A stretch of DNA of 64,000 bases from a virus. The stretch lies in IMG/VR virus record IMGVR_UViG_3300045808_000037, one strand, 5' to 3'. The notes beneath the pieces are model-generated. The model was not told the origin of the DNA. It saw only the letters and a list, made by a program, of their open reading frames with translations, and searched no databases. Of the stretch, positions 1,587-45,288 are shown piece by piece; the first letter of the stretch is position 1, and each line of letters begins with the position of its first letter. A program made the position numbers and the translations under genes.

Positions 1587-1823
1587 ATGATGGATTTTGC
1601 AGTGTTGGTAGCCGTGGCACTTTTTGCGACAGTATTTGCTAGTGTAATTTTCGGTAAAGAATTAGATGAAAAGGAGAAACAAGCCATTGCCAAAGAAAAG
1701 TTTCAATCAAGTCAACCTATAAATAAAGAGGAGCAAGATTATGGAGGAAGCTATTTTATGGAACAAGATGGCTTTGATCATCGAAGTGATCGTCACAGAG
1801 CAGTTAAAAGAGATCGAAAGTAA
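1587..1823 (+). CDS. Small membrane protein
   Basis: N-terminal TM helix; N-terminal half shared with 42439..42615. Confidence 0.7.
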   Translation: MMDFAVLVAVALFATVFASVIFGKELDEKEKQAIAKEKFQSSQPINKEEQDYGGSYFMEQDGFDHRSDRHRAVKRDRK

Positions 1824-1925
1824 AGCAAAATAAAAAGCATTAAGCAATCGCCCAATGCCCCCAAAATAATGATTTTGTCCCCGCCAAGGTAACTTCATTA
1901 TACCAAACAAAGGGGCGATTGAGCA

Positions 1926-2342
1926 ATGATGCTATTACTAAGAGAAGTTGATTTCTCTCAAACGAGAAAGAATGCACGATATGTTTTGAAGAACTACCGT
2001 CGGTTGGAGCGGATTGCAGGTCGTTCAAAGATCGATGTCCGCTCACCGATTATTACTGATATGCCTAGAACACCTAGTAATGGAAACAAGTCCGAGGATG
2101 CTTTTATTCAAAGATTGGATGCAGAAACAGAAAGAGATGCAATAATCGTGGCACTTATGGCATTGAAACTAACGAGCAGACAGATACTTCATTATAGCTT
2201 CTGCTTACAAGATCAGTATTCTAATCTAAGGATCGCAGATGAGATGGGCTATTCAGTTCGGCAAATTGAGCGAATGAAATCAGATGCATTGGTTGAATTT
2301 GCTGAAAGTTATCGTCGTGGCAAGCTTGTCGCTTATCGATGA
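1926..2342 (+). CDS. arpU: ArpU family late transcriptional activator
   Basis: LKNYRRLERIAGR...SPIITDMP N-terminus, sigma4-like C-terminal HTH (IADEMGYSVRQIERMKSDALVEFAESY), located just before the packaging genes. Confidence 0.9.
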   Translation: MMLLLREVDFSQTRKNARYVLKNYRRLERIAGRSKIDVRSPIITDMPRTPSNGNKSEDAFIQRLDAETERDAIIVALMALKLTSRQILHYSFCLQDQYSNLRIADEMGYSVRQIERMKSDALVEFAESYRRGKLVAYR

Positions 2343-2346
2343 AAAA

Positions 2347-2401
2347 TGGCGGTTTTTTGGCGGTATAATGGCGGTTTAATGACAATAATCCATAGTAAGA
2401 T
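2347..2401 (+). promoter_or_regulatory. Late promoter of prophage 1: three TGGCGGT repeats (11-bp period) and -10 TAAGAT
   Basis: TGGCGGT at 2347, 2358, 2369; TAAGAT at 2396-2401 followed by AGTATT, as in the prophage 2 counterpart; no sigmaA -35. Confidence 0.65.
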
Positions 2402-2424
2402 AGTATTATCAATTATTGTAAATA

Positions 2425-2570
2425 ACAGGGCGCACTCCTTTAAGATACGTTGGCAGACCTCCTTTCTGAAAATTATTCCCAGCGCCCTGTATTTAACTAA
2501 GACGGCGACAAAAAATCTATTATGAATGGAGTTGAACACACTCCTTATCTTCATTCGCTAGCCGTCTTTT
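2425..2570 (+). ncRNA. Two conserved hairpins of the late leader RNA (ACAGGGCGC/GCGCCCTGT and AAGACGGC/GCCGTCTT)
   Basis: Long inverted repeats; homologous copy at ~43584-43722 with pairing preserved. Confidence 0.6.
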
Positions 2571-2575
2571 TTTAT

Positions 2576-2650
2576 GTCACTGTGGCAGAGTGGTATTGCC
2601 TATCTCAAAACGAGGTAAGACTTGTGAGGTTCAAATCCTCACCAGTGACT
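2576..2650 (+). ncRNA. tRNA-like cloverleaf with non-canonical anticodon loop
   Basis: Acceptor GTCACTG/CAGTGAC, D arm GCAG/TTGC with GG, arm TATCT-CAAAACG-AGGTA (no U33), T arm GTGAGG-TTCAAAT-CCTCAC; no encoded CCA. Confidence 0.7.
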
Positions 2651-2699
2651 TTGGGAGTTGGCAATTAGATTACTCACATGATCTTTGGTGCTTCCTACT

Positions 2700-2725
2700 A
2701 AACAGTCCCTAGGGGCTGTTTTTTT
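2700..2725 (+). terminator. Intrinsic terminator ending the late leader
   Basis: AAACAGTCCC-TA-GGGGCTGTTT followed by a T run; compensatory variant at 43868-43891. Confidence 0.8.
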
Positions 2726-2728
2726 CTA

Positions 2729-2757
2729 TTGGGTATCACTTGATTTATTGATATCAT
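2729..2757 (+). promoter_or_regulatory. Putative sigmaA promoter for the cargo gene
   Basis: TTGGGT-17 bp-TATCAT with extended -10 TG. Confidence 0.5.
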
Positions 2758-2769
2758 GTAGGAAAGGGA

Positions 2770-3738
2770 GTGGAGAATGTGAACGATAAAAAATCTGATA
2801 ACTACGTACCTGAGATCAACCTAAAAATTCCAGACCACATAATTAGTTATAGTGAAAGAATCACAAAGATTGTTAATGAACACACTAGATCATTTGAAAA
2901 TCTGAACGAAACTTTTCATAAAATTGAAGAAATGGTTGCATCAAGTCTATCTTCAAAAATGAAGGCGATAATTAATGTGCAAAATCAAGCTATAAATACG
3001 CTAAATTCATTTTCACAAAATGTTTCAGAAAATTTAAATTTAATCAATATGAATCAAAAAATTTCTGAGATTATGTCAGCTGTAAATTGGAAAGGAATAT
3101 TAGATAAAGCAAATCGGGCCAAAGAAATTAATGCGGAGGCAGATCCCGAAATTTTGACAAAATTAGCTGATTTGGGGTGGTCAGCACCTACATGTATTTA
3201 TATACCTTTACATTTGTATAGTCTAAAACATGAAGAAAATCTTAACAAACATATGATTCGATTATACTGTAGAAATAATTTCGGGTATTTAATTGAAACT
3301 TTAAACACTATATCGGATTCACTAGATGATGATTTTAAGATAATAGTATTTCAAATGATTGATGTTTTGAACGATGATTGGAAAAAATACAAACTTTGTA
3401 CAGCAAATTTATTTATGATTTTAGAACATTTGTCAGTTATGAAAGTACACCCAGAATTGAAAACTAAACGTCTTCTTAATAAACCAATGATAGAAGAGTT
3501 GATGGCAGATAATGGGGAAGGAGACATATATTCTGCTGCTAAAGGTGAATGTAAAAAAGCAATAAAAGCATATTATGACCACCAAAATTTTGAGGAAATT
3601 ACCGAGCTTAAGTTTGGCAGACACTCTTTTTTACATGGAAGATATTCACCGGAAAAATTATCATTTCTAGACTTTTTAAAATTAGTAAATTGTATAGGTT
3701 TTTATTTTGAAGTTACAGAAGAACTAGAAATAGTATGA
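2770..3738 (+). CDS. Moron protein with C-terminal HEPN-like RxxxxH motif (putative RNase/defence toxin)
   Basis: FGRHSFLHG motif followed by a terminal helix; AT-rich; own putative promoter; inserted before terS. Confidence 0.6.
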   Translation: MENVNDKKSDNYVPEINLKIPDHIISYSERITKIVNEHTRSFENLNETFHKIEEMVASSLSSKMKAIINVQNQAINTLNSFSQNVSENLNLINMNQKISEIMSAVNWKGILDKANRAKEINAEADPEILTKLADLGWSAPTCIYIPLHLYSLKHEENLNKHMIRLYCRNNFGYLIETLNTISDSLDDDFKIIVFQMIDVLNDDWKKYKLCTANLFMILEHLSVMKVHPELKTKRLLNKPMIEELMADNGEGDIYSAAKGECKKAIKAYYDHQNFEEITELKFGRHSFLHGRYSPEKLSFLDFLKLVNCIGFYFEVTEELEIV

Positions 3739-3762
3739 CAAATACAGAAAAAGGTGAGAGTA

Positions 3763-4215
3763 GTGAAACTAACTGAAAAGCAACGTAGATTTGCGGATGA
3801 GTACATTATCAGCGGTAATGCTACTCAAGCCGCTATTTCTGCTGGGTACAGCAAACGAACTGCTAAGTCTGTAGGTAGTGAGAACCTGACAAAACCTGAC
3901 ATTAGACAATATATAGACGAAAGACTTGAACAGCTGCAATCAGAAAAAATCGCTAATCAAGAAGAGGTCCTGGAATATTTGAGTAAGGTTATGCGAGGAG
4001 AAGAAACAGATCAAACGGTAGTCTTTCAAGGATCTGAATACGGTTCAACGATAGAAGATGTGCAAGTAGCTAATAAAGATCGTATAAGAGCAGCTGAACT
4101 CCTTGGCAAAAGGTATAGCCTATGGACTGATAAAGTGGAACTAGATGGCAATATGGATCTGAAAGTGGTGGTTGATTATGGCGATGGCGAAAACGAAGCG
4201 CCAAATGATAGTTAA
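3763..4215 (+). CDS. terS: Terminase small subunit
   Basis: KLTEKQRRFADEYIISGNATQAAISAGYS, DRIRAAELLGKRY; AAAGGTGA SD favours GTG at 3763. Confidence 0.92.
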   Translation: MKLTEKQRRFADEYIISGNATQAAISAGYSKRTAKSVGSENLTKPDIRQYIDERLEQLQSEKIANQEEVLEYLSKVMRGEETDQTVVFQGSEYGSTIEDVQVANKDRIRAAELLGKRYSLWTDKVELDGNMDLKVVVDYGDGENEAPNDS

Positions 4216-5473
4216 GGTACAATTTAACCGAAATTTCCAAACATACAATACCACTAGGAAAAGATATCGATTAGCTAAAGGATCAGCTGGTTCTGGTAAA
4301 TCAGTAAATACTGCGCAAGACTTTATCATAAAACTTGGAGATCCGAAGTATAAAGGAGCAAATCTTCTTTGTGTTCGTAAAGTCGCCGAGTCAAATAAAG
4401 ATAGTACGTATGCTGAATTGAAGTCTGCTATCTATAAGATTTACGGATCTGACTACCACAAATATTGGTCCATTAAATCATCGCCTATGATGCTCGAATC
4501 AAAGATTACTGGCAATCAAGTGATATTTCGTGGGATGAAAGATGACGGACAGCGAGAAAAAGTAAAATCTATTACTTTTGACCGTGGTAAACTCACATGG
4601 ATATGGATCGAGGAAGCGACAGAACTTTATGAAGCCGATGTAGATATTCTCGATGACCGTTTACGTGGTAATTTGGATTTTAACCCATATCTTTACTATC
4701 AAATGACATTTACTTTTAACCCGGTATCAGCTACTCACTGGATCAAGTCAAAGTACTTTGATGTAACGCATCCAGACATTTTTACTCATCAATCAACATA
4801 TCTACAGAATCGATTCATTGATGAAGCCTATCACCGGCGGATGATGATGCGAAAAGAGCGTGATCCTGATGGATATCAAATCTATGGACTCGGCGAATGG
4901 GGTGAGTCTGGTGGACTTATCCTTACTAATTATATTGTAGAAAACTTTAACACAGACCCAGAACGTTTTGACTACATGGTTAACGCTCAAGACTTCGGAT
5001 TCAATCATGCCAATGCTATTGGTGAAATTGGATTTAAAGATGGCGAGCTTTTTTTGTGCCGTGAAATCTATGAGTTCGAAAAAGATACGAGTGAGCTTAT
5101 TGCAATCGCTAATGAAAAAAGAATCAATAAAAAGCTGGTTATGTGGTGTGATTCTGCCGAACCGGATCGAATTAAAATGTGGCGCAAAGCTGGCTATCAT
5201 GCTGAACCTGTTGTAAAAGAACCCGGAAGTGTGTCAGCACAGATCGATTATTTGAAGCAGATGCGCATCCATATCCATCCAAGTTGTACAAATACAATCA
5301 AAGAAATACAACAATGGAAGTGGAGAAAGGACGAGAAATCAAATACTTTTACGGACGATCCGGTGAATTTCTTTGATGATGCAATGGCGATGTTACGATA
5401 CTCTATTGAGCTGGAAAGACGTAAAGGTCAGCAAGCCAAGAAAAGACGCACAAATAGAAAAACAGCATTTTAG
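4172..5473 (+). CDS. terL: PBSX-family terminase large subunit
   Basis: Walker A GSAGSGKS, Walker B WIEEA, TFNP, C-terminal nuclease DFG...DDAMAMLRY. Confidence 0.93.
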   Translation: MIMAMAKTKRQMIVKVQFNRNFQTYNTTRKRYRLAKGSAGSGKSVNTAQDFIIKLGDPKYKGANLLCVRKVAESNKDSTYAELKSAIYKIYGSDYHKYWSIKSSPMMLESKITGNQVIFRGMKDDGQREKVKSITFDRGKLTWIWIEEATELYEADVDILDDRLRGNLDFNPYLYYQMTFTFNPVSATHWIKSKYFDVTHPDIFTHQSTYLQNRFIDEAYHRRMMMRKERDPDGYQIYGLGEWGESGGLILTNYIVENFNTDPERFDYMVNAQDFGFNHANAIGEIGFKDGELFLCREIYEFEKDTSELIAIANEKRINKKLVMWCDSAEPDRIKMWRKAGYHAEPVVKEPGSVSAQIDYLKQMRIHIHPSCTNTIKEIQQWKWRKDEKSNTFTDDPVNFFDDAMAMLRYSIELERRKGQQAKKRRTNRKTAF

Positions 5474-11599: not shown

Positions 11600-12106
11600 A
11601 TGAAAATGAATTTACAGTATTTTGCAGCTGGTGAAGGCTATTCACCTAACTGGATGAACAAATATGAAATCGGTGTAGCTGCAACGGTTGGTGAAAATGG
11701 AAAACTTGTGCCACCTACGACCGTTCACGAGCTAGCAGATGGTATTCAGGAAGCAACACCTTCCCAAGATGAATCATCTGAAACATATGAATATTACGGT
11801 GATAAGGGTGGATCAAACACCGATATCACACGTGTTACTGGTGTTTATGCTTTTACAGGTCATCGAAAATATGCCACTGATCCAGCGCAAGAATTTGTAC
11901 GCGATCGCTTAAATAAAGCTGGTCAAGATCGAATTGTATTCTTCCGTCATACTGAGCCAGACGGTCGGGTAATTCAAGGTAATGCAACTCTGTCAGGTAT
12001 TGTTCATACCGGCGGGGGACCTAACAACCGTGGTAACTTTGAAATGCAAGTATCTTTCAATGGTGTTCCAGAAGATACCAAACCAGATACAACCCCAGAA
12101 GGCTAG
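11600..12106 (+). CDS. Major tail (tube) protein
   Basis: Strong SD; FTGHRK...DPAQEF, GGGPN..GNFEMQVSFNG motifs; followed by a terminator. Confidence 0.82.
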   Translation: MKMNLQYFAAGEGYSPNWMNKYEIGVAATVGENGKLVPPTTVHELADGIQEATPSQDESSETYEYYGDKGGSNTDITRVTGVYAFTGHRKYATDPAQEFVRDRLNKAGQDRIVFFRHTEPDGRVIQGNATLSGIVHTGGGPNNRGNFEMQVSFNGVPEDTKPDTTPEG

Positions 12107-13268: not shown

Positions 13269-16200
13269 TGGTTCCGTAATTATTGAAGTCGAATTTAATA
13301 CCGATAATGCAAGGAAACAGTACCAGGCTTTTGGTAATGAAGCTGCACAACAATTGGATAATAAAATCGGCAAATCTAAAGCCTTCAACTCACTGTCTGA
13401 ACAGTCCACAGAGTTTGCAAAAAAAGCTAGTTTGAGTATTTTGGCAGTAGGAACTGCAGTTGCTGGTTTTTCAATAAAAGCTGCAGCCGACATGCAAGCA
13501 ATGGATGCTCAATTTTCTCAAGTGTTCGGCAATTTAGAGAAGAACGCTCAAAGTAGCATTGATTCAATCTCGAAAGAAACCAATATCCTGCCTAATCGCT
13601 TGAAACCAGCCTTCACTTCTATGGCTGCATTTGCAAAAACGACCGGTATGGATACAGCTGACGCATTAGACTTAACTAGTCGAGCAACTAAAGCGGCTGC
13701 CGACAGCGCTGCTTTTTACGATAAATCAATTGGCGAAGTCTCCGAGAGCTTACAGTCGTATTTAAAAGGAAACTACGAAAACGATGCAGCACTTGGGATT
13801 TCATCCACTGAAACCACTCGAAATGCAGCTGCAAATAAGCTTTACGGCAAATCTTTTAACGACTTATCCGAAGCCCAGAAGCAGTTGACACTTTTACAAA
13901 TGGTTGAGGATGGTAACAAGTTATCAGGTGCATTAGGACAAGCTGCACGTGAAGGCGGTGGTCTTGAGAACGTTATCGGAAACATGAAACAAGCCATCAC
14001 GGATTTAGGGGCAGCTTTTGGTGCCCCGTTGCTTGATCCATTTCTTGCAATTGTTCAAAAAATTAGTGGAGCAATGGCAAAGCTAGCAGAAGTGTTTAGA
14101 GAAAATCCTGCGCTTGTATATGTTGTTGTAGGTGCAGTAACTACTTTAGCTGCAGCATTAGGAGCAGCATATCTCGCAGCAAACAATTTTGCGAAATTGA
14201 AAGCAATCATGTCAGGGGTCAAAGCCGGCTTTATGGCTCTAACAAGTCCAGTTTCACTAGTTGTTCTAGCTATAGGTGCATTGGTAACTGCATTTATCTA
14301 TTTTTACAACACAAGTGATACCTTTAGAGAAAAGGTTAATGGGGCGGTTAAGACCTTACAATCTTTTATGGCTCCTGTTGGAGATGTTATTGAAGGCATT
14401 AAGTTGCTGGCACAAGCTTTTAAAGCCATTGTTTTCAACGACTTCAGTGTAAGTCTTTCTGATTTACATGATCAGTTCGTCAAACTATTCCCTGAATCTC
14501 TGTGGAACGGTATGACACAGTTCGCACAAAGTACTAAAGGAATAGTACAAGGGATTTCAACTCTGGCGAAAGCTTTTAAAGCAATAGCGCTTGATGATTT
14601 CTCGGTAAGTGTAACCAATTTAAAAGCAGATTTTTTAGAGGTGTTTCCTGAAAGCTTATGGAACGGAATGACCAAAATCGCTTTAGGAATTCGCTCATTG
14701 ATTAACGGATTCAAAAGCGGTGAAAAATCAATAGATCCATTTGGAATTGCTCTAAAAATATTGCAGTCAGTTTTTCTTGGATTACTTGGACCTATAGGAT
14801 TGTTCATCAAAGCGTTTGAATTGATTGCAAAGGCTCTAGGAGGCGGGGACGTATCAAAAGGGATAGATAAAATTATCGATGCCTTTGATTCGCTTGCATC
14901 TGGGTTACAAAGCAACGGACCGAAAGTAGGAAGTTCTGCTGGAAAGGCAATTGAGGGCATTCTCACGGCTATTGCAAGTGCATTACCTGGTATTATCTCA
15001 GGAGGATTGCAAATAGTAGCTGCTATTGTATCTGGAATCGCACAAGGCTTACCTTCATTAGCAATGTCTGCCAGTCAACTAATTATAGCTTTCACAGCAG
15101 CTATGCTTATTCTAGTACCGCAAATTGCTTTATCAGCAACAGCAATCATTGTGGCTTTATTAGCAGCTTTAACAGCAGGACTGCCTCAAATTATTGTTGC
15201 CGGCGGATCGCTGATATTAGCGCTGTTAGAAGGAATTACACAGCAACTGCCAGCGTTGATCGAGTCTGCAGCAACTTTAATCGTTACTTGGCTGACTTCT
15301 CTTACATCGCACTTACCAGAAATTATAACTGCGGGTATGTCTTTATTGGTCGCAGTGATACAAGGGATAACCCAAAAATTACCCGATCTGATAATTGCTG
15401 TTGGGCAAATGATAGTAGCCTTTTTAACCGCACTCTCGTCTCAACTACCGCAAATAGTCATTGCTGGTGCCACCTTAATAGTTAATTTCATTAATGGGTT
15501 AGCTACTATGATGCCAAGTATTGTAGCTGCAGCAATAAATTTAGTTGTTCAGTTCCTTGGCGGAATCTCAGCTAACTTAGGAAGGGTAATAACCGCCGGT
15601 GTCAGTATAGTCGTTGCGGTTATCAACGGGATTGCAAATAATATCGGACGTATTATTGAAGCAGGTATGAATCTCGTAGATCAAACTGTTGCTGGAATTC
15701 TTAGGGCACAAGATAGATTGTTTCAAGCGGGAATAACTTTAGTTAATGGTCTAGCTGATAATATACGAGGAAATCAAGGAGCCATGAGCGATGCAGGGGC
15801 AAATCTACTTAATGCATTGATAGGAGCCTTGCCTGGTGGAGCACTTATCAATAATGGTATTGCGCTAGTTGACGGTTTGTTAAGTGGGCTTATGTCAGGC
15901 TTTGAAAATGTTAAAAGGACGGTTTCGGGTTGGGCAGATACAATCGCAAGTTTAAAAGGACCGATTCCATACGATAAAAAAGTATTAATAGAAAATGGGC
16001 TGGCTTTGGTATCAGGGCTTAGAGAAGGATTGTTGAATGGATTCTCAGAAGTAAAATCGAATGTCGCAACATGGGCAAACGAATTGCAAGAAGGAATCGA
16101 ATCTGAATTTGATTCAAACTATTTTAACGATTTAATCAAATCAATTCCAACTGAAATACCAGCGATGAACGCTTTGATGAATGGAGTACTTTCGCCAGAA

Positions 16201-42869: not shown

Positions 42870-42989
42870 GGTCTTCACCCCTTTCATAATTATATTATAT
42901 ACCTCGATTATTAAAATAATGTAAATAAAAAAGAAATGTATTCATCTAGACGCCCGAGTCAAGGTGGAAATAAAGAGGAGGTCCAGTTA

Positions 42990-43508
42990 TTGGAAATTAA
43001 TGTTCATGAACTTTCAGATAAACAATTAGATGAACTAGCTCTAAAAATTAGGAAAGGAATTCAAAAAGACAGGGAATATGAGAAAAAACAGTTCAAGAAA
43101 AGAGCTTTTCACAATACAAGATTGCTGATGAACAACTATCACAAGTTAAAAGCCCATAGTGAAGCGGTTGAGGAGCATGTAGAGGAAGTGCAAGGAACAT
43201 TTTGGGAGCATAAGTGGTTGAACCTCGATTTACTGATGCAAAATAAAGCGAAATCAGTTAAGCTTATGAAGCATGTTGATATATGCCTAGAAGCTTATAA
43301 GGAGATTTGTCTTTCAACAGGTAAGCCGGAAGACAAGCGGAAGTGGCGAATCATTAACAAAAAGTTTATTGAGCGTCCATTGTTGAATGATGATAAATTA
43401 GCAGAGCAATTACATGTTGATCGTTCTACTATTAGTCGCAACTGTAAAGAAGCGCTTGAAGATTTATCGGTAGTTCTGTTTGGTATCGACATGATTAATG
43501 ATTGGTAG
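42990..43508 (+). CDS. Late transcriptional activator (ArpU/RinA-like, divergent from the prophage 1 copy)
   Basis: NTRLLMNNYHKLK, C-terminal HTH LAEQLHVDRSTISRNCKEALEDLSVVLFG; GAGGAGG SD before TTG. Confidence 0.8.
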   Translation: MEINVHELSDKQLDELALKIRKGIQKDREYEKKQFKKRAFHNTRLLMNNYHKLKAHSEAVEEHVEEVQGTFWEHKWLNLDLLMQNKAKSVKLMKHVDICLEAYKEICLSTGKPEDKRKWRIINKKFIERPLLNDDKLAEQLHVDRSTISRNCKEALEDLSVVLFGIDMINDW

Positions 43509-43510
43509 CC

Positions 43511-43556
43511 CATGCACAAAACATGCACACACATGCAACAAATCCAGTGATACAAT
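43511..43556 (+). promoter_or_regulatory. Late promoter of prophage 2: three CATGCA(C/A) repeats and extended -10 TGaTACAAT
   Basis: Repeats at 43511, 43522, 43532; TACAAT at 43551-43556. Confidence 0.7.
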
Positions 43557-43583
43557 AGTATTGTAGAAATTTTTAAATATCAG

Positions 43584-43722
43584 GGCGCACTCCTTTATGA
43601 TTCGTTGGCAGACCTACTTTCGTGATTACCTTTCAGCGCCCTGTATTTAATTAAGACGGCACCCAAAAATTTAAAATGAATGGAGTTGAACACACTCCTT
43701 ATCTTCATTCGCTAGCCGTCTT
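43584..43722 (+). ncRNA. Two conserved hairpins of the late leader RNA (copy 2)
   Basis: CAGGGCGC/GCGCCCTG and AAGACGGC/GCCGTCTT stems homologous to 2425-2570. Confidence 0.6.
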
Positions 43723-43730
43723 AATTTTAT

Positions 43731-43816
43731 GTCACTGTGGCAGACCGGGGAAATGCAGAGGCTATGCATAGAATGTGTACGACTCGTAAGTGAGGTTCAA
43801 GTCCTCACCAGTGGCT
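43731..43816 (+). ncRNA. tRNA-like cloverleaf with extended anticodon arm
   Basis: GTCACTG/CAGTGGC acceptor, GCAG..GG..TGC D arm, GTGAGG-TTCAAGT-CCTCAC T arm; central arm GAGGCTATGCAT-AGA-ATGTGTACGACTC. Confidence 0.65.
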
Positions 43817-43867
43817 TTGGGAGTTGTCGATTAGATTACTCACATGATCTTTGGTACTTCCTACTTT

Positions 43868-43891
43868 GCAGTCCCTCGGGGCTGCTTTTTT
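43868..43891 (+). terminator. Intrinsic terminator ending the late leader (copy 2)
   Basis: GCAGTCCC-TC-GGGGCTGC followed by a T run. Confidence 0.8.
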
Positions 43892-43894
43892 ACA

Positions 43895-43947: not shown

Positions 43948-44346
43948 ATGAATTACGAAGAGTTGAAAGAATATGTAGGTAGTCAACTACCTGAAACATC
44001 TAAGCTGACGATAATGAAGCGCGTTATAGATGATATCGCAAGTGAATTCTTTAATTTAAAGAATAAATTGACTGAGGATCTTAACATCGATGAAAATCAG
44101 AACAATATCAACGTAGCGAAAACTGGGAACCGTAGAGGAACTGTACTCAGCATCGGAGACCGCCAAATAAAAGTCGATTATGATGGAGATTCACATATCG
44201 AGGTTATAGTGTATGAGCCGGGAGTTTTAGATGCAACAAAGATTGACGATATCATTTATAGAGATGGAAAAGCCGTCTATGAGGGTAATGGCGAACTATT
44301 TGATTTAAAATCGATAGAAAGCTATCTTGATTGGTTCAAAAAATAA
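43948..44346 (+). CDS. Moron hypothetical protein (132 aa)
   Basis: GGAGGGTG SD before ATG at 43948; own promoter and terminator. Confidence 0.75.
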   Translation: MNYEELKEYVGSQLPETSKLTIMKRVIDDIASEFFNLKNKLTEDLNIDENQNNINVAKTGNRRGTVLSIGDRQIKVDYDGDSHIEVIVYEPGVLDATKIDDIIYRDGKAVYEGNGELFDLKSIESYLDWFKK

Positions 44347-44352
44347 TTGGTT

Positions 44353-44381
44353 GACACCCTAAAAACAGGGTGTCTTTTTTT
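44353..44381 (+). terminator. Intrinsic terminator after the moron
   Basis: GACACCCT-AAAAAC-AGGGTGTC followed by T7. Confidence 0.8.
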
Positions 44382-44427: not shown

Positions 44428-45288
44428 ATGGCTAGACAAAGAAACCCAAATAGAGATAAAGCCTATAAATTGTGGCTAAAATCAAAAGAACGACCTTTAG
44501 TAGATATAGCCAAGGAATTAGGAGAACGTCCGTCAACTATCAGAAAATGGAAATCACAAGATAACTGGGAGCGTTCCGATTCCAAAAGGAGCGCTCCGAA
44601 TAAAAAGGAACACTCCGATAAGGCAAATGATTCACCGCAATTAATAATTAATAACGATGACCTGACAGAGCAACAAAAGTTGTTCTGTCTTTACTATTTA
44701 CAATCATTTAATGCAACGAAGGCGTATCAACAAGCGTATGGATGCGACTATAATTCCGCTAGGTCTAACAGCATAAGATTGATAGCAAAAGATAGCATAA
44801 AGGTCGAGTTAAGAAGGCTGAAGGCGGAATTGCAGCAAGATGTCTTTCTTGATGTAAAAGATCTGATAAGAGAATACGCAAAGCAGGCGTTTGCTGATAT
44901 CACTGATTTCGTTGAGTTCTCATCAACAGAACACAAACTATATGAGTATGATGATGCTGGTGAGAAGCGAGAGGTGTTTAACGAGTTTACTGGGGAGTTA
45001 GAAACGTACAAATCATCACAGGTTGCACTGAAGAGTAGTGAAGAGGTTGATGGTACGCTTATTCAAGAAGTCAAAAAGGGGAAAGACGGCATATCGGTCA
45101 AACTTTATGACAAACAAAAAGCCATGTCAGAACTCATGAAATATCTTGGCGGTGATCGGTTGCGAGAAGTGCAGATTGCTGCGGCTATTGCTAAGAATAA
45201 GGATGGCAGCGAAGAGTTTGATATGGAAGACGATGGTTTCTTGGCAGCATTGGAAGCTGAAGGTGAAGAACTATGGCCAGAAGAGTAA
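44428..45288 (+). CDS. terS: Terminase small subunit with N-terminal HTH
   Basis: IAKELGERPSTIRKWKSQDNW, LTEQQKLFCLYYLQSFNATKAY, VKLYDKQKAM. Confidence 0.9.
   Translation: MARQRNPNRDKAYKLWLKSKERPLVDIAKELGERPSTIRKWKSQDNWERSDSKRSAPNKKEHSDKANDSPQLIINNDDLTEQQKLFCLYYLQSFNATKAYQQAYGCDYNSARSNSIRLIAKDSIKVELRRLKAELQQDVFLDVKDLIREYAKQAFADITDFVEFSSTEHKLYEYDDAGEKREVFNEFTGELETYKSSQVALKSSEEVDGTLIQEVKKGKDGISVKLYDKQKAMSELMKYLGGDRLREVQIAAAIAKNKDGSEEFDMEDDGFLAALEAEGEELWPEE

Follow-up and report, generated by a model that had tools for sequence, protein, structure and literature searches.

The 64,000-nt viral DNA of IMG/VR record IMGVR_UViG_3300045808_000037, referred to here as the window, carries two prophages, and in each of them a non-coding cassette lies at the start of the late operon (copy A, 2408-2727; copy B, 43570-43892). 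The cassette is a modular RNA leader with a nested hairpin, H2, as its core and a slot for exchangeable cargo, which in both copies is filled by a tRNA-like element. The leader identity, the modular build, the H2 core and the cargo slot are all well supported. The stretch is interpreted, with moderate confidence, as the untranslated 5´ leader of each late operon, which would be transcribed from a single promoter activated by an Ltr-type protein, with a tRNA-like cargo that would be excised and an H2 that would act in cis. H2 itself appears, with good support from sequence comparison, to be a previously uncatalogued RNA motif, and it was detected only in phages and prophages of Enterococcaceae.

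The leader cassette and its H2 core

The modules of the two copies are as follows.

2426..2489, + strand: hairpin H1, copy A, with an 8-bp closing stem (CAGGGCGC/GCGCCCTG) and a variable interior (minimum free energy fold)
2496..2573, + strand: H2, copy A, with an outer 8-bp helix (AAGACGGC/GCCGTCTT), an A-rich internal loop, an inner purine/pyrimidine hairpin (GAATGGAG...) and a U-run
2576..2650, + strand: cargo slot, copy A, with a non-decoding 'GTCACTG' tRNA-like RNA, type A, 75 nt
2653..2695, + strand: hairpin H4, copy A, with the conserved loop TTACTCACATG (minimum free energy fold)
2700..2727, + strand: predicted intrinsic terminator, copy A, with a 9-bp stem and a T-run
43581..43643, + strand: hairpin H1, copy B (alignment and fold)
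43650..43727, + strand: H2, copy B, with an interrupted U-run (TTAATTTT)
43731..43816, + strand: cargo slot, copy B, with a GTCACTG tRNA-like RNA, type B, 86 nt
43819..43861, + strand: hairpin H4, copy B (alignment and fold)
43868..43892, + strand: predicted intrinsic terminator, copy B, with a 7-bp stem (5 G-C pairs) and T6

The two copies align over ~320 nt with 79% identity, while their flanks are unrelated by pairwise alignment (23% identity in the upstream repeat region and 44% downstream), and both cassettes sit between unrelated activator genes and unrelated packaging genes. This agrees with an earlier note, made from the sequence alone, that had described a shared non-coding cassette in unrelated surroundings. 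H4 (94%) and H2 including its linkers (90%) are the most similar segments, followed by H1 (81%) and the terminator (75%), and the tRNA-like element is 65% identical with 11 gap columns. Minimum free energy (MFE) folds of both copies give the architecture proposed by the same note, namely hairpin 1, hairpin 2, a cloverleaf-like element, hairpin 4 and a terminator. The fold energies are -92.3 kcal/mol for copy A and -96.2 kcal/mol for copy B (z = -3.4 and -3.8 versus dinucleotide shuffles), and none of 100 dinucleotide shuffles folds as stably as either copy.

The cassette contains no conserved open reading frame (ORF), as had been stated, and relatives are separated by 1- and 2-nt indels. An ATG-started ORF of 48 codons (2522-2668) was considered as a leader peptide and rejected: it lacks a Shine-Dalgarno sequence, its ATG is lost in divergent H2 copies, and it is not conserved, crossing the slot that holds different RNAs in relatives. 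The differences between the two copies had also been read as preserving pairing. This is correct for single positions (the terminator base pair, A-U versus G-C, and the acceptor pair 2:71, U-A versus U-G), but these are too few to be counted as covariation, and real covariation emerges only after distant relatives are added to the alignment.

Related loci number ~45 in IMG/VR (from pattern scans), 2 among GenBank phages, ~25 in metagenomes (from a metagenome scan) and ~30 in genomes. The BLAST search identified two Enterococcus phages, and in E. gallinarum phage EG-TP1 the match follows a gene annotated 'transcriptional activator'. The scan of genome contigs identified E. casseliflavus NBRC 100478 and one Bacillota metagenome-assembled contig, and BLAST of the divergent leaders against the phage collection returned the tRNA part only, or nothing. 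The modular order, seen across about 90 related loci, consists of activator-specific triple repeats with a -10 box, H1, H2, the cargo slot, H4 and a predicted intrinsic terminator. The repeats fall into at least five types (TGGCGG, ATGCAC, TAGGGATAAAATAGG, CTGCGG-type and CATGCGG-type), with the -10 position and the leader unchanged, and the genes behind the leader differ widely among the loci. The H1, H4, cloverleaf and terminator modules can be exchanged or dispensed with; what persists in distant relatives is the repeats, the -10 box (consensus near TTATTATGATAGTGTC) and H2. In the minimal relatives L058, L082 and L102, H2 runs straight into a ribosome-binding site and an ORF, with neither a terminator nor cargo, and L058, L082 and E. 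faecium phage 4995_2 have no tRNA, H4 or terminator between H2 and the ORF.

H2 is a nested hairpin of ~75 nt and the only module that is universal among the related loci. Two covariance models, R1 built from the close clade and R2 from 25 diverse hits, assign 107.5 and 98.1 bits to copy A and 102.3 and 96.1 bits to copy B, respectively, and the sense strand scores ~100 bits versus ~20 bits for the antisense strand. In 36 diverse sequences, aligned by fitting to the model, 97.2% of the pair cells are standard pairs. A covariance model from homologous loci had been proposed in the earlier note as a check, and for H2 it gives double-sided changes in 12 of 16 pairs (71 cells); shuffled controls give a mean of 7.2 pairs, with 0 of 500 shuffles reaching the observed value, and slid-partner controls give 2-5. 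The outer helix occurs as GACGGC/GCCGUC, GACAGCAC/GUGCUGUC, GACGC/GCGUC, GAGACGUCA/UGACGUCUC and GGCGGC/GCCGCC, and the inner hairpin as GAAUGGAG/CUUCAUUC, AAAGGAAG/CUUCCUUU and GAAUGGAG/CUCCAUUC. Inside the close clade the stems are nearly invariant (1 of 31 pairs covaries), and covariation is uninformative there because the stems hardly vary. Of 134 Enterococcaceae species genomes, 21 match the H2 model, frequently at 2-3 places each, and of 150 genomes of other Bacilli none does; an exact-pattern scan located the close form of H2 only in the E. casseliflavus-group genus.

The pairing of H2 and that of the tRNA-like T stem (see below) are supported statistically, but the pairing of H1 and H4 is not. 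In 36 relatives the H1 stem is invariant or changed to G-U and just one interior pair covaries, and in distant relatives H1 is swapped for other hairpins or absent. The changes in H4 among relatives are one-sided with pairing kept (for example, GTCAA/TTGGTG versus GTCGA/TTGATA). One of the hairpins that stand in for H1 has CUACUCACA(A/C) in its loop, which is also the motif of the window's H4 loop, and the ACTCACA loop motif reappears in a hairpin upstream of H2 in distant relatives. H1 as a mimic of the 16S 3´ end (anti-Shine-Dalgarno, ACCTCCTTTCT) was rejected; the motif is not conserved, and copy B and many relatives have CCTACTTTC.

No named RNA family accounts for the cassette, in line with the earlier note. 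A scan with Rfam 15 at gathering thresholds gives no match in the whole 64-kb window, and at E≤10 over 2300-2800 it gives no tRNA and no other credible match. Across the window and 20 related loci, the scan finds only real tRNAs, rli28/RatA and one tmRNA, all in relatives, and no match to H1, H2, H4 or either window cloverleaf. Among the publications searched, none was found on H2, on H1/H4 or on the GTCACTG elements. The ROOL and GOLLD RNAs are ncRNAs (non-coding RNAs) of Lactobacillales prophages that often adjoin tRNAs and may be co-transcribed with them (PMC5737381). Their families (RF03087 and RF01998) have no match in the window or in the 20 related loci, and H2 is absent from the 1.5 kb around each of six Enterococcaceae ROOL loci. 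The leader also differs from them in being a chain of small modules, not one large fold.

What was described before as a selected, structured ncRNA cassette at both late-operon starts is indeed non-coding, structured, selected and modular, and it stands at both sites; it is not one fixed five-module RNA. The cloverleaf is present in both copies, but as exchangeable cargo in a slot instead of a fixed part.

The cargo slot and the GTCACTG tRNA-like RNAs

The distance from H2 to H4 varies from 99 to 704 nt across loci because the cloverleaf position is a slot. Sister phages have genuine tRNAs at this position, namely Lys(UUU), Pro(UGG), Pro together with Ile(GAU), and Met(CAU). ARAGORN confirms those for Lys, Pro and Ile, which score 60-68 bits against RF00005, and the slot tRNAs as a whole score 47-69 bits. 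The other contents are GTCACTG elements of 74-135 nt and, in one locus, 0.7 kb with ORFs. Processing of the leader into pieces is plausible because the bona fide tRNAs of sister phages lie exactly at the place of the cloverleaf.

Neither element of the window is a canonical tRNA. ARAGORN reads 2576-2650 as tRNA-Phe(aaa) with an abnormal anticodon loop, CAAAACG, without U33, and makes no call on the copy B element at 43731-43816; RF00005 matches neither element at its gathering threshold of 29 bits and nothing at E≤10 in 2300-2800. The copy A loop has A33 and C37 where a canonical anticodon loop has U33 and a purine at 37. The copy B element has the acceptor and T arm of copy A with a different interior.

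The same division is found throughout the GTCACTG elements. In all 17 distinct elements the acceptor is paired at 7 of 7 positions and the 6-bp T stem at 6 of 6, forming a tRNA-like minihelix of coaxial acceptor and T stems with a T loop and no encoded CCA. The T stem exists in seven sequence variants (including GUGAGG/CCUCAC, GCAAGG/CCUUGC, GUAAGG/CCUUAC and GCAAUG/CAUUGC), and it covaries, since all seven stay fully paired. The T loops are TTCAAAT, TTCAAGT, TTCGATT, TGCAAAT and similar. Most elements carry a tRNA-Leu-like D arm, and the region of the anticodon arm is replaced by 20-80 nt of unrelated folds. The trailer after the discriminator base begins with T or TT. The acceptor/T-arm half is the part that is recognised by RNase P, RNase Z and the CCA-adding enzyme, and cleavage of the window elements is predicted on this ground.

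A 130-nt GTCACTG element, unannotated, lies in the tRNA cluster of the lytic E. faecium Schiekvirus EfV12-phi1 (NC_048087; L101:2501-2632), and another is present in EFP01. The EfV12-phi1 element is ~80% identical to the element that follows H2 in prophage L097. The GTCACTG elements are a real RNA family and not a product of decay specific to the window, because the same element sits in the tRNA clusters of lytic phages.

A tRNA within a late leader has precedents. In lambdoid Stx phages, tRNA genes follow the late promoter, and these and other phage tRNA genes or islands resemble the leader in placing small RNA genes between the late promoter and the first late genes. The window elements differ in that they are not tRNAs by Rfam, have an acceptor/T stack of 7+6 bp instead of 7+5 bp, and lack a canonical anticodon loop. 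The mascRNA of MALAT1 is a tRNA-like processing signal, and the CI RNA of phage P4 and the C4 RNA of phage P1 are matured by RNase P. The likeness to these RNAs consists of a tRNA-shaped fold within a longer ncRNA that could recruit RNase P or RNase Z, of which only the acceptor/T-arm half is conserved here; there is no sequence relationship, and cleavage is a prediction in the leader.

Several further features of the slot and of the tRNA clusters were observed. The tRNA-Lys(UUU) and tRNA-Pro(UGG) of the slot (L014, L019, L025, L010 and others) share one body, with the acceptor CAGGAAT/ATTCCTG (C1-G72) and the same D and T arms, and differ essentially only in the anticodon stem-loop, as if this arm were swapped on a fixed frame. 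The loop motif (C/U)AAAACG recurs in several GTCACTG members, including window copy A. At L076, an 85-nt tRNA (13529-13613; RF00005, 47 bits) directly follows H2 and precedes a GTCACTG element of 135 nt; read from its sequence, the anticodon loop of this tRNA is of the Phe type (GAA) and its variable arm is long. At L053 (869-1182) and L076 (13895-14077), rli28 (92-99 bits) is accompanied by a convergent RatA at threshold (49.2 bits), a putative type I toxin-antitoxin pair, which in these distant relatives is late-leader cargo placed after H2 and the tRNA-like element; the window has no gathering-score match to this pair (RF01492, RF01776). In EfV12-phi1, a tmRNA match (RF00023, 122 bits; L101:1344-1694) adjoins a homing-endonuclease gene, and the record has no tmRNA feature there.

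Late promoters, gene order and terminators

The features that surround the two leaders are as follows.

1926..2342, + strand: late activator gene of prophage 1, ArpU/Ltr family I-like (phrog_248 'transcriptional activator', E 1.9e-41)
2347..2374, + strand: three direct TGGCGG boxes ~11 nt apart, presumed activator-binding site (sequence pattern)
2396..2401, + strand: -10 box TAAGAT of the late promoter of prophage 1 (alignment position)
2770-3738: ORF of 322 aa without a family match, first ORF behind the leader in prophage 1
3754-4215: terS of prophage 1, followed by terL
42936..43508, + strand: late activator-like gene of prophage 2, 190 aa (phrog_1558, E 2.4e-46)
43512..43538, + strand: three direct ATGCA(C/A) boxes (pattern search)
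43548..43556, + strand: extended -10 box TGaTACAAT of prophage 2 (read from the sequence; aligns with the -10 box of copy A)
43948-44346: ORF of 132 aa, first ORF behind the leader in prophage 2
44353-44381: predicted second strong terminator of prophage 2, before terS
44428-45288: terS of prophage 2 (PF03592), followed by terL

Both prophages share the gene order activator, leader, (small ORF), terS and terL. The activator of prophage 1 (1926..2342) has no Pfam match at E≤0.01 in addition to its PHROG assignment. The 190-aa protein of prophage 2 matches the transcription-regulator families phrog_36 and phrog_248 weakly with its C-terminus and probably belongs to the Ltr superfamily. The triple TGGCGG array is the sole one in the window, with 0.01 expected by chance. 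The ATGCA(C/A) array is likewise the only one that the pattern search found in the window, although the pattern itself is not rare by chance; the same boxes precede the same leader in L005, L006, L012 and others. A TAnnAT hexamer occupies the same alignment position across promoter types (TAAGAT, TAAAAT, TACAAT and TATTAT, with TATGAT in distant relatives), and the late transcript of prophage 1 would start near 2408-2410.

ArpU, RinA and LtrA-C bind to short direct repeats that immediately precede the late terS promoter, and no phage protein other than these is required to activate the late operon (PMC3753634). In both prophages of the window, direct repeats follow an Ltr-type gene and lie upstream of terS, and binding of the activator to them is predicted. 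The known control regions, such as that of E. faecalis phiFL2A (PMC3753634), are alike in that the activator ends the early region, the repeats lie upstream of the -10 box, the packaging genes lie downstream, and the activator switches the whole late operon. The window differs in that conserved structured RNA of 320 nt, together with a terminator, separates the promoter from the first late gene; in a term search of that publication, 'leader' and 'tRNA' are not mentioned and 'terminator' occurs twice. Since each prophage has one activator site, directed into the leader, late transcription would have to start at the leader promoter and cross the leader terminator, and then also the terminator at 12097 in prophage 1 and that at 44353 in prophage 2.

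At both 2700-2727 and 43868-43892 a GC-rich hairpin is followed by a U-run, which predicts intrinsic termination. Relatives end in this terminator or in an unrelated one (GCGGTCC...GGACCGT+T7) at the same place, and because two unrelated versions occupy this place, the terminator as such is selected, not a particular sequence. Downstream of the promoter, terminators are predicted at 2700 and 12097 in prophage 1 and at 43868 and 44353 in prophage 2. Of 40 loci, 29 have a strong terminator on the sense strand in the 900 nt that follow H2, and 6 have one on the antisense strand.

The 322-aa and 132-aa ORFs that come first after the leaders are mutually unrelated, have no Pfam match and no significant PHROG function, and look moron-type. 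An extended -10-like box (TGATATCAT) lies right after the cassette terminator at 2743-2751 of the window, and many loci have extended -10-like boxes (TGATATAAT, TGATATTAT) or a GGTATGATAA box between the leader terminator and the first ORF. Such boxes could act, without need of the activator, as promoters of the small cargo genes that separate the leader from terS.

Function of the leader and competing explanations

As a 5´ leader with excised cargo and a cis-acting H2, the stretch would function as follows. After induction, the activator would fire the promoter, and RNA polymerase would make H1 and H2 first. The tRNA or tRNA-like element would be recognised via its acceptor/T-arm minihelix, with RNase P cutting the 5´ side and RNase Z the 3´ side, and cleavage would release an H1-H2 RNA, the tRNA-like RNA and an H4-terminator RNA. 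Part of late transcription would read through the leader terminator and further ones. This read-through would be required because all late genes lie behind terminators and no second activator site exists.

As for H2, it is tentatively proposed as a cis-acting RNA antiterminator that may work on the host polymerase during elongation, an assignment by analogy that is possible rather than likely. Antitermination is favoured because H2 is the first conserved RNA made, independent of the activator type and of the downstream genes; because it is confined to one host family, as expected if the RNA fits the host polymerase; and because the terminators to be crossed by late transcription lie behind it. 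Antitermination would further account for the tolerance of terminator-bearing cargo in the interval from the promoter to terS and for its accumulation at precisely this site. Processive antiterminators that consist of RNA alone or are based on RNA are found in 5´ leaders of long operons (PMC8191782), and the leader likewise lies upstream of several intrinsic terminators of the same operon. The put element of HK022, EAR of Bacillus and conAn2 of pLS20-type plasmids (PMC8191782) are alike in being hairpin-based, lineage-restricted RNAs that act in cis from a 5´ leader in operons with internal intrinsic terminators. They differ in having no sequence or Rfam relation to H2; in addition, H2 usually has its own U-run, and tRNA processing would sever it. 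A broader combination is quite unlikely, in which H2 would represent a new class of RNA-only or host-factor-assisted processive antiterminator and the GTCACTG elements would be phage 'tRNA scaffold' small RNAs released by RNase P and RNase Z. The inserts that replace the anticodon arm would then be interchangeable and could serve, for example, as decoys versus tRNA-targeting defences.

The window originates from ant-associated metagenomes, and the region is present as assembled contigs in six metatranscriptome runs. Over 1800-4300 the contigs break at 47 nt that are identical in both copies (2522-2568). The k-mer depth of this 47-nt H2 unitig is 381, 271 and 703 in the RNA runs X19, X21 and X23 and that of the flanking contigs is 19-149, so the unitig exceeds its flanks 2 to 20 times in the three RNA runs, and a DNA run has no such excess. 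This pattern weakly suggests that H2-containing RNA is abundant from at least one copy.

Several points weigh against a cis-acting leader with excised cargo. The contig depths are sums over both copies and related phages, from which no starts, ends or strand can be read. The alignments behind the H2 pair counts were fitted to the model, and part of the double-sided changes in the outer helix are register shifts between sub-families. H1 and H4 are without statistical covariation. A U-run follows H2 in ~70% of loci, so that H2 is possibly a terminator and not an antiterminator. If RNase P cleaves the leader, H2 would be cut off from the polymerase and would need to stay bound alone. The -10-like boxes after the cassette terminator, in many loci and at 2743-2751 of the window, could drive the downstream genes independently.

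The last of these points belongs also to the alternative that survives best, which is nonetheless unlikely: the cassette would be an autonomous, late-expressed RNA gene, a non-coding 'moron' that forms a promoter-to-terminator unit with RNA products acting in trans. These products would be decoys or substitutes versus tRNA-targeting defences, or base-pairing small RNAs using the ACUCACA loop, and the late genes would be transcribed from promoters behind the terminator. A terminator invariably closes the cassette, also where its sequence has been exchanged for an unrelated one, and the slot holds functional-looking tRNAs. The tRNA-like family also occurs among lytic-phage tRNA genes outside any late leader, type I toxin-antitoxin cargo (rli28/RatA) lies in the same zone of relatives, and the H2 unitig is deep in the RNA runs. 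However, the sole activator-box array of each prophage points into the cassette, and in the Ltr model the late genes depend on that promoter. In L058, L082 and L102, moreover, H2 is a 5´ untranslated element before a ribosome-binding site and an ORF and not a separate gene, and the window contains no 8-nt complement of the ACUCACA (ACTCACA in DNA) loop motif.

The U-run and the position of H2 bear on another alternative, which is decidedly improbable. H2, with its GC-rich outer helix and U-run, and the final terminator would constitute a conditional terminator or attenuator that aborts leaky late transcription unless the outer helix is kept open by a factor (activator-modified polymerase, a host protein or a tRNA) or by an alternative fold, for which two mutually exclusive pairings of GGAG, with a proximal CUCC or a distal CUUC, are candidates. 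The geometry of H2 is terminator-like in ~70% of loci, and two competing inner pairings are thermodynamically possible, each favoured in different sub-families. The position right after the promoter parallels lambda PR'-tR'. Nevertheless, an intact U-run is lacking in ~30% of loci, among them copy B (TTAATTTT) and the variants TTAAGAC, TCAATTA and TCTATTG, a plain terminator needs no conserved 60-nt interior, and no upstream anti-terminator partner was found for the 5´ strand. A T-box leader (RF00230) was rejected as well: there is no Rfam match at E≤10, and H1/H2 are constant while the tRNA of the slot varies (Lys, Pro, Ile, Met or mimic).

A DNA-level element (a recombination linker between early and late modules, a cos/pac site or a protein-binding site) with incidental hairpins is very improbable: the cassette lies exactly at a module boundary with freely reassorting flanks, and two database phage records begin or end inside it, but compensatory changes keep the H2 helices, whose arms are ~60 nt apart, and the T stem, which argues for selection on RNA pairing, and the models score ~100 bits sense versus ~20 antisense. 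A cos/pac site in particular was rejected as unlikely, as the downstream terminases are unrelated, which makes a shared packaging site unlikely, and the record ends are inconsistent, differing between the two phages in a manner that resembles arbitrary cuts of circular assemblies.

Part of this system is known: the promoter belongs to the Ltr late-promoter kind, and a tRNA in a late leader has precedents. H2 as the universal core, a calibrated H2 model, its family-restricted distribution and the covariation counts are new here, and H2 is a covariation-supported RNA motif absent from Rfam. The current account of late control in temperate phages of Gram-positive bacteria rests on one activator and one promoter. 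If a conserved RNA and a terminator indeed separate the promoter from the virion and lysis genes, a second control layer, whether antitermination, attenuation or processing, would decide burst and transduction in Enterococcus phages. The slot shows phages swapping tRNAs, tRNA mimics and toxin-antitoxin RNAs at a single expression site, in a system that is small and experimentally tractable.

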